DNA of 64,000 nt, taken from Escherichia coli. GTDB lineage: Bacteria; Pseudomonadota; Gammaproteobacteria; Enterobacterales; Enterobacteriaceae. The position numbers and the translations under genes were made by a program. The notes under the pieces were generated by a model, which saw only the letters and a program-made list of their open reading frames with translations, was not told where the DNA came from and searched no databases. The DNA is taken from assembly GCF_009931435.1 (NCBI RefSeq), contig NZ_CP043414.1; one strand, 5' to 3'. Position 1 is the first letter of the stretch. Each line of letters starts with the position of its first letter. Below are positions 37,431-57,018 of this stretch, piece after piece.

Positions 37431-38146
37431 ATATCACCAGGAGCCGCGGCTCCTTTGCGTATCCTTTTATGTCTCCTCACCGTCTGGTCGGTGTCTTGCT
37501 GAGACTTCTAACTTCCTGTTTTTGTTGGTGTTGTCCTTGTACCGTCCAATCATGATGCTGGCGTCTCTGTAATTAGTTATGTAATAACATGATAAATAAA
37601 TGGTTATTTGATTTAATAATAATTTAGGGTGCTAAAAAGGAACCATTAAATCTAAACTATCTGGTATTGCCGCATTTCTTATCAACCATATGATGGGCAA
37701 GATAGCACAACCATCAGTTCAGCTACCATCAGGGAGTTGAATTCAAAGTCATCACAACAAAACCCTCTCTGTTTGCTATAAACGAGATGAAGATTGGTAT
37801 TGCCACCACTACCGTATCAATCAGGGCGAAAGGTTGAGCTAAAGAGGGTAAAGCTCGACCTCACGTCTTAGAAAATGCTGTCCTTCAAACATGATTAGTG
37901 CAGAATTTAAACTGATTACTCGTAATGCCCTAATAAATATGAATATTTTAAAATAGGTTAAAACAGCCAAACTTATAGCACTTTTTGCTAAAGTCCTTAA
38001 AGCCTCGTCCTGTCACCTCATCCACGCTGCTCTTCGCCATCTGTGTAAAAAATGCTCAATAACGAAATAATTCCGGCAAAGCAGGTGTTGATTGTCATAC
38101 GCGATATTCGAATAATAACTCCATCAAAACAACAATGGAGAAATAT

Positions 38147-38347
38147 ATGGCAGTAAGAAGATTTATTCGTTTACCTGAAGTTATCAACAGAACTGGCTAT
38201 GGCAAAACATGGATTTATCACCTTATCAAGCGGGGTGAATTCCCTGAACCTATAAAGACTGGTGCAAGAACAATAGCATTTATTGAAAGTGAGATTGATG
38301 AATGGATTGAAGCTATTATTCGAAACTCACGCCAGAACGCAGCATAA
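38147..38347 (+). CDS. alpA: AlpA-family (excisionase-like) transcriptional regulator
   Basis: FIRLPEVINRTGYGKTWIYHLIKRGEFPEPIKTGARTIAFIESEIDEWIEA matches AlpA/phage regulatory HTH pattern. Confidence 0.8.
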   Translation: MAVRRFIRLPEVINRTGYGKTWIYHLIKRGEFPEPIKTGARTIAFIESEIDEWIEAIIRNSRQNAA

Positions 38348-38416
38348 AAACAGAAATAGGATCTCGTGTCGAACAGATATCTGTTCGCTCAGGGAATCTT
38401 ATTACCCTAAACAATA

Positions 38417-38719
38417 ATGGAGAAGAGTATGAAGATAGAACTTATTACGACAAAACAGTTTATTGAACAAGCCGAATGTTATTTCAGGAACTATATAGAC
38501 GGATTGCGGAGGAATGCACCAGATGATTTTTATTATTTTCTCAACAATAAATACAATATGAATGACATTATGGAAAGTATCATTAAAAAAACGAGATATC
38601 ATTTTTATGATGACACAGAAGAAGGTAAAAGGAATCGGATTTATGGAGAAGTAAGCCACAGTAAGGTAAAGCAACACCTTCGTCAGCTTTGGATTGTCTA
38701 TAAATGTGTATACCGCTAA
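38417..38719 (+). CDS. Hypothetical protein
   Basis: 100 aa ORF downstream of alpA, same strand; no recognisable motif. Confidence 0.4.
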   Translation: MEKSMKIELITTKQFIEQAECYFRNYIDGLRRNAPDDFYYFLNNKYNMNDIMESIIKKTRYHFYDDTEEGKRNRIYGEVSHSKVKQHLRQLWIVYKCVYR

Positions 38720-38771
38720 TACTTATACAAATATTTTGCTATTCCAATATTAAACTAAATAGGAAATAAAA

Positions 38772-39068
38772 ATGAATACATTTAAAAATAAATCTACTGA
38801 AATCTTTTATGTTGTGTCCTTGCATATCTACGCGGAGCTTTTTAACTCAAAGGATAAAACGACCAGCAATATGATTATAACGCATGTAATGGATCATGAG
38901 TTTGTCTGTAGGCTAATCGATCTGGCGATGAGAAATGCTGAGAAGCATCTTCTGAAAAAAGCATGGAAAAAGAACGCTGCTGAAAAACTGTCTGAGGTGG
39001 ATTTTAAAGGGGTTAAGCAGGCATTAGCTAAAATGCATTACACTGTTCTGGCGGAATCAATATGTTGA
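38772..39068 (+). CDS. Hypothetical protein
   Basis: 98 aa ORF, same strand as alpA cluster; no recognisable motif. Confidence 0.4.
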   Translation: MNTFKNKSTEIFYVVSLHIYAELFNSKDKTTSNMIITHVMDHEFVCRLIDLAMRNAEKHLLKKAWKKNAAEKLSEVDFKGVKQALAKMHYTVLAESIC

Positions 39069-55079: not shown

Positions 55080-55348
55080 TTTTTGTTGCCCCTGTTAATC
55101 AAATCATAGCGTAAATCTATTAATACATATTTAACATTGGCTTTATGTATGAAATACGCATTCTCCTTAGCTAAAGGATATTATAAAGTGGACTAAAAAT
55201 CATCTAACACCTTGCAAAATGTGAAGTTTTTCTTCATGTAAAACTCATAAATAACGTTACTATTCTGTTAGTAACGAAATAATCGGGAAACTTGCTATTT
55301 ACGGTTTACAGGAATCTTAATCAAAGTTGTGTAAAAGTTTAATCTTAC

Positions 55349-55606
55349 TTATTGAGCAAATTCAAACTGCCTGACCATCCCATCCCGGTTAGCATCAAGA
55401 AAATCTGCCCACCACTGTAGCATTAACCTTCGCTGCTCAAGATGCTTGGCCTTATGGGTATAGGCAGCACGAACACTGTTGCTTTCCTTGTGGATCATCT
55501 GGAGTTCCACCGCATCTTCAGACCATAGCCCTGATTTAATCAGAGCACTACATGCCAGTGTGCGGAAACCATGACCAGAGATGTCCTGTGTGGTGTCATA
55601 GCCCAT
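55349..55606 (-). pseudogene. C-terminal remnant of a second tyrosine integrase
   Basis: 85 aa: ...GHGFRTLACSALI...AAYTH...LMLQWWADFL aligns with the C-terminus of the adjacent intact integrase (HxxR box and catalytic Tyr) but lacks the N-terminal 300+ residues. Confidence 0.7.
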
Positions 55607-55624
55607 TTATGCATTCTCTTGTTA

Positions 55625-56854
55625 TCAAGCAGCCATAGCCCTATACTTTTGCGCCTTAACGTAATCTCCCCACCATTGCATAAGCACTTCTCGCTCCCCT
55701 AAATATTCAGCTCGATTGTAGGCTGCTATGATTTCAGTGCTTTTGGTATGGGCCAATGCTGCTTCAAGAACTTCTGTTCTGAATTTGCCACTCTCTTCGG
55801 CGGCTGTTCTGGCAATAGAACGCATACCATGAGCTACCAGTTCACCACCCAACCCCATACGAATCAATGCGGCGTTGGCTGTCTGCTCATGCATGTGGGC
55901 CAATGGTGTTTTTATGCTGGGAAATACCCATTCACGATGACCGCTGATAGGCTGCATGTTTTCCAGAATGCGAAGTGCCTCTTTGCTTAATGGCACTTTA
56001 TGAGGCCGTTTCATCTTCATAAACTCTGGTGGGATGTTCCAGATTTTATTCTCTGTATCGATGTCAGCCCAACGAGCACGAACAGCCTCACCGGGGCGAA
56101 CCCATGTCAGCAGTTGCCATTCAATCAGCATACGGGTTTCCAGACGGATGGATGCGTTTGCCAGTGCAATCATAAACCGGGGGATTTCGCTTGGTGGTAA
56201 TGCTGGCATATTTTGTTTTTTGGGCTTACTGAAACGTTGACCAAGGTTGTCGGCTGGGTTGAACTCAATGAGTTCTTCTGTGGCAGCATAGCGAAAAATT
56301 TCATTCAGGCGGGAAATGATGCGACGTAGAGTTTCAAGCACACCCCGTTGTTCAATTGGGTCGAGATGCTGCTTGAGCATTTTGGGGCGGATCTCTTTGA
56401 TAGGGACATCACCCAGAGTGGGAAAGATGTTCCGTTCAAGGCTACGCCAGATGTCTTCTGCATGATCTTGGGATATACCGGAAGTCTTAATCTTTTCATC
56501 CAACCACTTTCTTGCAACAGCCTGTAGCGTGTTTTCAGTCGCATCTTTTAGTGCATTGGCTTTTTCGTTGTTATGGACTTGAGGATCGATACCGTTGGCA
56601 AGTAGGGAGAGATACTCATCCCGCAAAGTTCGTGCCTTAGCCAAGGTAAGGTGAGGGTAGGTTCCAAGACTCATTTTTGTGCGTTTTTTGGTCACTGGCA
56701 CTGAATACCTGAAATACCAGTTTTTCTTCCCTCCTTTTGTGTCTGGCGCTATGCGTAGCAGTAATCCATCTCCATCAAAGAGGTTGATTTCCTTATCGCC
56801 GGGTTTGGTATTTTTGATTTCAGTATCAGTAAGTTTTTTTGCGAGCTTTGCCAT
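55625..56854 (-). CDS. P4-type tyrosine integrase (IntA family)
   Basis: 409 aa; ...VAHGMRSIARTAAEESG...AAYNRAEYLGEREVLMQWW; located immediately beside the 3' end of ssrA. Confidence 0.9.
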   Translation of the reverse strand: MAKLAKKLTDTEIKNTKPGDKEINLFDGDGLLLRIAPDTKGGKKNWYFRYSVPVTKKRTKMSLGTYPHLTLAKARTLRDEYLSLLANGIDPQVHNNEKANALKDATENTLQAVARKWLDEKIKTSGISQDHAEDIWRSLERNIFPTLGDVPIKEIRPKMLKQHLDPIEQRGVLETLRRIISRLNEIFRYAATEELIEFNPADNLGQRFSKPKKQNMPALPPSEIPRFMIALANASIRLETRMLIEWQLLTWVRPGEAVRARWADIDTENKIWNIPPEFMKMKRPHKVPLSKEALRILENMQPISGHREWVFPSIKTPLAHMHEQTANAALIRMGLGGELVAHGMRSIARTAAEESGKFRTEVLEAALAHTKSTEIIAAYNRAEYLGEREVLMQWWGDYVKAQKYRAMAA

Positions 56855-57018
56855 TTGGGACCCTCAAGTTTTGGACCCTTTCCGTTGGGTCCCAAAAAGG
56901 GTGCCATAAGTTGTGGTTCTCAGCAATTCTCCCTGAACTATAGTGAACGTAAAAAAGCCCGCAGAGCTTGTGCTGTGCGGGCTTAGTGAACTTCACTGAA
57001 CGTTAGTGTATCAATATT

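Follow-up and report, generated by a model that had tools for sequence, protein, structure and literature searches.

The EARL, or ROD21-like, family of genomic islands has been defined by an attL at tRNA-Asn together with its integrase (PMC6035254). Its members include ROD21, associated with virulence in Salmonella, and ICEKp258.2, which marks the pandemic ST258 clone of K. pneumoniae. Published work shows that members of the family excise, circularise and transfer (PMC6035254, PMC10763509), and the gene order in ICEKp258.2 is integrase, cargo, PilV-like protein, pilin, TraD, MobQ, a defence slot, DUF4756, H-NS, AlpA and DUF6387 (PMC10763509). In this study, we describe an island of 19.45 kb (37564-57025) in a 64,000-nucleotide stretch of an Escherichia coli chromosome (contig NZ_CP043414.1; this whole stretch is called the window here), where it lies between ypjA (32735-37396, from the list of open reading frames, ORFs) and the 3′ end of ssrA, the tmRNA gene (57019-57381, minus strand; called by ARAGORN, 295.8 bits with Rfam). 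Compared gene for gene, the backbone of the island is that of the known EARL/ROD21-like family (ROD21, ICEKp258.2, IE3). We consider it very probable that the island is one integrative mobilisable element (IME) of recombinant origin, in which an EARL/ROD21-like interior (alpA, repL, mobQ, oriT, traD, pilin, pilV) is held between tmRNA-specific ends.

As in the described EARL islands, the genes follow the order integrase, cargo, PilV-like protein, pilin, TraD, MobQ, TIR/defence slot, DUF4756 and AlpA, the size (19-41 kb in the family) and the low GC content are similar, and the make-up is that of an excisable, relaxase-bearing island without a type IV secretion system (T4SS). A MOBQ (MobA/MobL) relaxase with a TraD homologue, a type IV pilin with a PilV-like protein and an AlpA-family recombination directionality factor (RDF) near the opposite attachment site are all present. 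The differences lie in the integration module and the cargo. The island is at ssrA and not at tRNA-Asn, its intact integrase is 33% identical to the EARL Asn-type integrase, the ROD21-like P4-type integrase expected next to attL is reduced to an 84-codon stump, and the 25-bp tRNA-Asn repeat of ICEKp258.2 had no match in the window with up to three mismatches. Moreover, DUF6387 and H-NS/H-NST are missing, and Lamassu and an Mrr-type effector make up the cargo. The island is placed among the IMEs by its integrase, 7-bp att cores, MobQ and candidate origin of transfer (oriT), and by the absence of any match to a T4SS or coupling protein (T4CP) family among its 22 genes.

The sequence-only reading of this DNA had likewise proposed an IME rather than a prophage, naming a P4-type integrase beside the tmRNA gene, a MobA/MobL relaxase, AlpA, type IV pilin-like genes, lipoproteins and defence candidates, with no capsid, tail or terminase genes, and all of these were borne out. 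Its "MobC-like" gene (49410-49715), however, belongs to the TraD family. The novelty that it saw in the region is upheld in part: the gene content and order already carry the name of the EARL family (PMC6035254, PMC10763509), whereas att-like repeats do bound the island. Our findings therefore refine a known family and change no paradigm; what is new is the integration module, the ssrA site and a conserved twin-palindrome block.

The best matches among 5,426 complete E. coli genomes were serU islands bearing hfp and hnsT, which cover 63% of the island at 93% identity (strain 2016C-3878, locus L001; 91-94% DNA identity). They share the order from alpA to pilV (the 3′ part of alpA, repL, mobQ, traD, pilin, pilV) but have a third type of integrase (27-32% identical), placed at the end far from the tRNA, carry SIR2+TIR and VOC cargo, and keep DUF6387, H-NST, DUF6404 and Hfp. 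E. coli KFu019 (L002) has the same backbone at tRNA-Asn, with 91-97% DNA identity. The Serratia marcescens UMH3 island is listed as EARL (PMC6035254), and its MobQ, TraD and lipoprotein are 60%, 59% and 72% identical to those of the window. In an alignment scan with MobQ, limited to one genome per species, we found 40 Enterobacterales loci; MobQ identity was 89% to the serU island, 83-85% to the KFu019 island and 56-68% to 38 other loci. A family of IMEs named PIME (bioRxiv 2026.01.12.698999) was also considered and rejected as unrelated, its module set (repA, traJ, trbJ/L) being different.

The combination of an ssrA-type integrase (83-96% identity) with the same MobQ/TraD backbone recurs in Prodigiosinella (L029), Hafnia (L036), Kluyvera (L045), Citrobacter (L046) and Enterobacter (L043), and two further loci are listed with it, L006, which has Lamassu in the same slot, and the metagenomic contig L004; at least six genera besides Escherichia are represented. 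The other relatives have Asn-type, serU-type or tRNA-Phe-linked integrases, and the ssrA type is the most frequent among species representatives with a typeable integrase. A literature search for ROD21-like islands at tmRNA/ssrA retrieved none, the single match concerning the SPI-2 gene ssrA. From these comparisons, ssrA is a regular and common site for the EARL-type backbone, one that the papers retrieved do not mention. The family has been defined and sought through its tRNA-Asn integrase, but one and the same mobilisation backbone is found with no fewer than four unrelated integrases, the ssrA type being the most frequent, and for this reason the family is larger than described and its integration module exchangeable.

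The recombinant origin is most visible at the right end of the island. The intact integrase (409 aa; 55625-56854, minus strand) is P4-like, of the ssrA-specific CP4-57 type; it matches NCBIfam NF007246 over its full length with 450.8 bits (curated cut-off 434) and lies 164 bp from the 3′ end of ssrA. At the amino acid level it shares 85-96% identity with integrases beside ssrA in many Enterobacterales (83-91% for the tmRNA-adjacent homologues of L006, L029, L036, L045 and L046), and its best nucleotide match among the 5,426 E. coli genomes reaches 77.9% only. Twelve bp after its stop codon begins the relic of a tRNA-Asn (EARL-type) integrase (last 84 codons; 55352-55613, minus strand), which shares 95% identity with the intact Asn-type integrase of KFu019 (residues 338-421) and 31% with the window integrase. 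The relaxase tells a different story from the intact integrase: MobQ is 83-89% identical to that of the E. coli Asn/serU islands and 58-68% identical to that of the ssrA-type islands, and for the integrase this pattern is reversed. At the left end, the homology switches inside alpA at 38276. The incongruence of MobQ and integrase, the integrase stump and the switch within alpA indicate that recombination between family members set an E. coli EARL interior between ssrA-type ends. The int/attL end and the attR end with the 5′ part of alpA derive from an ssrA-type family member. The donor of the segment 38276-55613 was of the E. coli tRNA-Asn/serU type, and the 3′ stump of its own integrase came with it. 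The right-hand junction could have formed by tandem insertion followed by deletion, or by illegitimate recombination. An integrase stump behind an intact integrase is a rare physical trace of integrase exchange.

KFu019 itself carries two successive integrase stumps behind its intact Asn integrase (L002 23163-23458). The same relic as in the window occurs there, and the window stump and the neighbouring Lamassu genes are 98% identical to those of KFu019 despite the different chromosomal sites. This suggests repeated replacement of the integration module, that is, recurrent integrase turnover, in the island family.

The attachment sites were defined by comparison with other E. coli and with Prodigiosinella. 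The sequence-only reading had placed the island at 37433-56860; the island is there, but its ends lie about 130 and 165 bp outside these positions, the cores being two direct 7-bp copies of GCTGGCG, attR at 37557-37563 and attL at 57026-57032, the latter inside the 3′ end of ssrA. The conserved chromosomal flank to the left of attR is CCAATCATGAT, which ends at 37556, where the homology to other E. coli stops. In K-12 this flank is directly followed by TGGTGGGCTGGCGGAGTCTGAA, a degenerate copy of the ssrA end, and in the window by TG-CTGGCG and then TCTCTGTAATTA. The attR of the Prodigiosinella island has the same architecture, ACAGAGAC followed by CCCCAGC (ACAGAGAC[G/C]CCAGC), which matches its own tmRNA and likewise lacks TCCACCA. 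The sequences retrieved for L006, L036, L045 and L046 stop short of the far island end. A 10-mer, GGGAGTTGAA at 37732, which is the only repeat of the ssrA 3′ end found with BLAST at word size 7, was tried as attR and rejected, as the comparison with K-12, O157, strain 135 and Prodigiosinella puts attR at 37557-37563. The 10-mer is instead a conserved arm motif that is inverted in O157 and strain 135.

The left (P) arm and the region upstream of alpA are non-coding (37564-38134) and contain GGTGCTAAAAAGGAACC at 37627-37650 and a TTCAACTCCC motif, read on the minus strand, at 37732-37741. Over about 200 nt this arm aligns with the far end of the ssrA-type Prodigiosinella island at 73% identity, some 5.6 standard deviations above shuffled controls, and 37565-37656 matches the end of the ssrA island in E. 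coli strain 135 at 89% identity. No remnant of DUF6387, a gene present in relatives, was found in the left arm. The right (P′) arm (56855-57025, minus strand) comprises the int promoter region, a replacement terminator hairpin for ssrA and the last 7 nt of ssrA; it is 92% identical to L004 up to window position 57040 and is conserved also in L006 and L029. In L004 the same integrase follows a P4-like satellite, and no tmRNA gene is present on the contig. On these alignments, the 164 bp between int and ssrA and the final nucleotides of ssrA are island DNA. Since the left arm and attR match the Prodigiosinella island, in addition to the homologies of the integrase and the right arm, both island ends are, by the same comparison, parts of one ssrA-type integration module.

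At the attR of ssrA islands, the displaced 3′ end of the tmRNA gene is trimmed to a variable extent in each strain, always from just after CCAGC, with 1 nt lost in K-12, 4 nt in strain 135, 5 nt in O157 and 7 nt in the window (compared at window 37553-37572, L010 1661-1683, L011 1661-1680, L003 4157-4175 and L029 18262-18280). In L029, TCCACCA seems to be missing too. The common left edge of the trimmed ends looks like the crossover point. Some 160 nt inside attR, four ssrA islands carry a motif that resembles the T arm of tmRNA (TTCAACTCCCTGATGG..CTGAAC; window 37716-37744; L003 4320-4348; L011 1823-1850; L029 18108-18133), in ssrA orientation in the window and Prodigiosinella and inverted in O157 and strain 135. 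The ssrA islands of O157 and strain 135 are of another type, with DUF6387, AlpA and a tyrosine-recombinase trio.

The CP4-57 prophage of K-12 occupies the same site, from the 3′ end of ssrA to ypjA, and has an integrase of the same NF007246 family and an AlpA-family regulator; homologues of the island integrase are named "Prophage CP4-57 integrase" in their source annotations. The two elements have no cargo in common, however, as had been noted from the sequence. K-12 has ypjF/yfjZ/ypjJ at the junction, where homology with the window ends at 37556, its element is without relaxase, pilins or Lamassu, and 22 nt of the ssrA end are still present as a copy at its attR, compared with 7 nt in the window. 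The K-12 gene content that would make the island a CP4-57 prophage is thus not shared. A drop in GC content had also been pointed out, and it amounts to 37.7% in the island against 49.5% in ypjA and 49.8% in the right flank. The right core flank (57400-63900) shares 99.3% identity with its best match among the 5,426 complete E. coli genomes.

The alpA-family gene (38135-38347, plus strand; 70 aa) lies 570 bp from attR and encodes a putative RDF and regulator. It matches PHROG 66 and 2790, "excisionase and transcriptional regulator" (2e-10), matches TIGR01764 weakly, and is 62-71% identical to the AlpA/HTH genes (RDFs) of relatives. The ROD21 homologue SEN1998 is a characterised RDF (PMC8844411).

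Several observations weigh against a functional mobile element of this kind, and most of them would equally fit a decaying remnant, once mobile and now fixed, in which mobility genes are being lost while the island is kept as an immobile "defence island" for its Lamassu and nuclease effector. The att identity is just 7 bp, the GCTGGCG heptamer occurs in four copies across the 20-kb region, and the displaced ssrA terminal TCCACCA is missing at attR; because the repeat is so short and so frequent, the assignment of the cores rests on their position and on the comparison with relatives. DUF4756 has a nonsense codon, the DUF6387, H-NST and Hfp (H-NS) genes have been deleted, the family's own integrase is truncated and the RepL profile match is weak (1.9e-5). 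None of the 5,426 complete E. coli genomes contains 80% or more of the island, and the junction of relic and integrase had no match in JGI metagenomes, so that there is no sign that the exact chimera has spread. In addition, a helper plasmid would be required, ROD21 transfer being reported to need pSLT. Nevertheless, int, alpA, mobQ, traD, pilin, pilV and repL are full length and match their relatives from end to end, both ends are of the same integration type, and the genes that are missing fall outside the set conserved in at least 70% of EARL islands (PMC10763509). The absence of TCCACCA could reflect decay, though the identical attR state is seen in a native relative of another genus, Prodigiosinella. 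We therefore regard a fixed remnant as unlikely.

Much less likely still is that two adjacent elements have been taken for one, namely a solitary integrase of an old ssrA island and a truncated tRNA-Asn EARL island brought beside it by illegitimate or homologous recombination, with ends that do not match. The Asn-type stump only 12 bp from the ssrA integrase stop codon, the int-stump arrays of KFu019, by which such arrays are known to arise in the family, and the tandem array at ssrA in L004 would all be expected under that account. The left end of the island, however, is not of the Asn type, and it has no tRNA-Asn repeat within three mismatches; because the left arm and attR resemble those of ssrA-type islands, the two ends match each other and the intact integrase. 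The sequence-only reading had also called the island satellite-like, and a P4-like satellite or a phage-inducible chromosomal island (PICI), mobilised by a helper phage and not by conjugation, would likewise be small, free of virion genes and equipped with AlpA and a P4-type integrase at ssrA, with defence cargo in a hotspot beside int; at this very site, L004 even has a P4-like satellite with a DUF927 primase and AlpA. This part of the earlier reading is not sustained and we give it hardly any credence, as no primase-helicase module, no psu/delta/sid-like or other capsid-redirecting gene, and no terS, cos or packaging genes were found (ORF list; scans with NCBIfam, Pfam and PHROG), the 10 proteins compared with PHROGs gave no match to structural or packaging families, and a MobQ relaxase, TraD and an oriT-like site are present. 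The same searches of the island revealed no capsid, tail, terminase or other virion gene, and every island ORF of at least 80 aa is either assigned or shared with non-phage relatives. An IME with an EARL interior and ssrA-type ends remains the reading that we follow.

MobQ (47283-48764, minus strand; 493 aa) matches NF041496 (2e-74, 249.7 bits against a cut-off of 200), and the TraD-family relaxosome accessory protein (49410-49715, plus strand; 101 aa) matches PF06412 (1.5e-10). In the candidate oriT (48877-48912), upstream of mobQ, the inverted repeat CACACTGC/GCAGTGT precedes TATAGGTGGGC. In the corresponding region of L006, which is 76% identical, the stem is kept through different, compensatory bases, and the downstream motif is TATAAGTGGGC. 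The candidate seems to resemble the nick region of RSF1010, TAAGTGCGC/CCT or TAAGTGCG/CCCT.

By homology to ROD21 and ICEKp258.2, we infer a life cycle of excision, nicking, transfer through a helper T4SS and re-integration, with possible RepL-dependent replication and with protection by Lamassu. The ssrA-type integrase and AlpA would recombine the 7-bp cores of attL and attR to give a 19.45-kb circle, MobQ with TraD would nick oriT upstream of mobQ, and a co-resident conjugative plasmid would contribute the T4SS and a coupling protein. Once in the recipient, the island would be inserted by the integrase at the 3′ end of ssrA, for which it brings a replacement 3′ end and terminator. RepL and the twin-palindrome block may permit transient replication of the circle. 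While resident, the island would give its host a complete two-gene Lamassu and a solo Mrr-type nuclease effector.

The RepL-like replication or maintenance protein (39754-40311, minus strand; 185 aa) matches Pfam PF05732 and is 95% identical to the gene annotated RepL in the serU island. Beside repL lies a non-coding stretch of 917 bp (40312-41227) with a conserved block of 245 nt (40709-40953), which is found also at L001 11758-12002, at L030 (UMH3) 19585-19828 and in about 20 other loci. The block contains two direct copies of the hairpin-forming palindrome GTGATTGT-N5-ACAATCAC with outer arms (40729-40749 and 40868-40888, 139 nt apart), two further small hairpins and a DnaA-box-like motif, TTTGGATAAATCCA, also given as TGGATAAATCCA, that agrees with eight of nine DnaA box positions. 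The exact palindrome is present in 23 of 52 fetched loci, usually in two copies 139-165 nt apart, irrespective of the integrase type and of RepL, and no protein of the island family comes near the block in its conservation across genera. A structured RNA was considered and found unsupported, with a covariation term of -0.63 kcal/mol in RNAalifold, 3 of 43 pairs compensatory and no match in Rfam. As covariation is slight and Rfam gave no match, the block is more likely a DNA site, such as an oriV or a single-strand initiation site, than an RNA. Neither this block nor RepL nor oriT is described in the EARL papers (PMC6035254, PMC10763509).

The island encodes a type IV major pilin (50107-50670, plus strand; 187 aa) with a TIGR02532 prepilin N-terminal domain, 98% identical to a serU island gene annotated as type IV pilus major subunit, and a PilV-like minor pilin or tip adhesin (50723-52186, plus strand; 487 aa) with an N_methyl motif. 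The latter matches only the end of Shufflon_N, some 60 residues of that profile (6.8e-12), and it is 47-54% identical over about 70 aa, or some 15% of the protein, to PilV of 2,367 conjugative (IncI-type) plasmids. By the ORF list, the island has no rci, pilus assembly genes or alternative C-terminal segments, and the protein is not an IncI-type PilV shufflon adhesin. A PilV-like gene 95.9% identical to that of the island occurs at 127430-128890 of CP088875.1, a 393-kb E. coli record classed as plasmid, which may mean that an island of the same family sits on a very large plasmid or that the record is misclassified.

The SGI1/MGI-type IMEs have no sequence relationship to the island, but like it they have their own integrase, RDF, relaxase or oriT, and replication function, and they encode substitutes for parts of the helper transfer apparatus, for which the pilin and PilV are the candidates in the window. 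It is conceivable, although we consider it rather doubtful, that the family parasitises conjugative plasmids in two ways not yet described. The pilin and PilV might be assembled into a type IV pilus of helper or host and steer mating towards recipients favourable to the island, comparable to the remodelling of the IncC mating apparatus by SGI1, and the block of twin palindromes and DnaA box might serve as origin of the circle. The idea of pilus re-targeting arises because the pilin/PilV pair occurs without assembly genes and because PilV is IncI-like only around the end of the constant region. If true, the interchangeable integrases (ssrA, Asn, serU, Phe) would make the family a site-agnostic "hitcher" platform that shuttles defence systems.

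Two cargo slots can be distinguished. The slot by the integrase holds Lamassu (52247-55079, minus strand), composed of lmuB, for an SMC-like ATPase of 590 aa, and lmuA, for a DUF4297/Cap4-type nuclease of 362 aa. LmuB matches PADLOC PDLC00250 (1.8e-224; residues 8-589 against 2-581 of 582 profile positions) and LmuA matches PDLC00244 over the full profile length (2.1e-137). The adjacent reading frames have 29 nt in common, show 98% identity with their counterparts in KFu019 and form a Lamassu system that, like Lamassu type I (LmuA-LmuB) and DdmABC, joins an SMC-like ATPase to a DUF4297/Cap4-type nuclease, in a two-gene form without LmuC. The same slot holds Lamassu also in L006, a type III restriction-modification system in ICEKp258.2 and VOC in the serU island.

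The other slot follows three genes of unknown function and holds a 305-aa protein (43172-44089, plus strand) in the window, SIR2+TIR in the serU island, DUF4238 in KFu019 and TPR+TIR in ICEKp258.2. Direct searches of the 305-aa protein against Pfam, NCBIfam, PADLOC, PHROG and PDB sequences were uninformative. Its family, however, comprises 1,299 cluster representatives at E <= 0.001, and 30 of 60 scanned members match Mrr_cat PF04471 (best 5e-10), a few matching EAD1/EAD8. The AlphaFold (AF2) model (pLDDT 96.8) has a helical N-terminal domain, a 65-residue helix, taken as a coiled coil, and an alpha/beta C-terminal domain whose best Foldseek matches are the PD-(D/E)xK nucleases MspJI, Cdn1, NucS and AspBHI, and which we assign to the Mrr type. 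A role as stand-alone defence or abortive effector is plausible. A 90% identical copy is present in the S. marcescens UMH3 EARL island. Complete defence systems thus occupy fixed cargo slots of small mobilisable islands, Lamassu here and SIR2/TIR, Thoeris and type III restriction-modification in relatives; the Thoeris-like ThsB/ThsA genes are those near mobQ in L006. Published accounts treat TIR genes of the island family as virulence factors (TlpA and other Tcps). These genes share the variable slot with SIR2, ThsA/ThsB-like and nuclease genes (L001 14318-16382; L006 19176-20659; ICEKp258.2 ORFs 14-15), and from this setting they may have roles in anti-phage defence instead.

The three genes of unknown function before the 305-aa protein (89, 134 and 327 aa; 41228-43005, plus strand) are common to L001, L002 and L030 and had no match in Pfam, NCBIfam, PADLOC or PHROG. 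Across 41228-44089, the genes for the 89-aa, 327-aa and 305-aa proteins share 86-90% identity with their UMH3 counterparts, the MobQ proteins of the same two islands being only 60% identical. Because of this difference, the segment is, by protein identity, one that was exchanged between genera more recently than the backbone diverged.

Among the remaining backbone genes, two of unknown function follow alpA (100 and 98 aa; 38417-39068, plus strand; PHROG 38005 and 19730) and are 95% and 99% identical to those of L001. DUF4756 is a pseudogene with a stop at codon 22 (39132-39599, minus strand), and in L001 the H-NST, DUF6404 and Hfp (H-NS) genes that were deleted from the window lie beside it. 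The region 44150-45995 encodes a lipoprotein (139 aa, minus strand), DUF4755 (162 aa, minus strand) and an LptM-like lipoprotein (184 aa, plus strand), the two lipobox proteins being at 44150-44569 and 45441-45995; among backbone proteins, only MobQ and TraD are more widely conserved than the LptM-like lipoprotein. Two further genes of unknown function (191 and 164 aa; 46088-47204, minus strand; PHROG 9607 and 26734) are 99% and 93% identical to those of L001. On the other side of ypjA from the island, a second stretch of low GC content (33-35%) follows a tRNA gene at 29605-29680; there, 30432-31886 encodes a 484-aa protein with C-terminal pentapeptide-like repeats in a ypjC-like region. The tRNA has a CAT anticodon and is called Met by ARAGORN, and by its position it is probably ileY.

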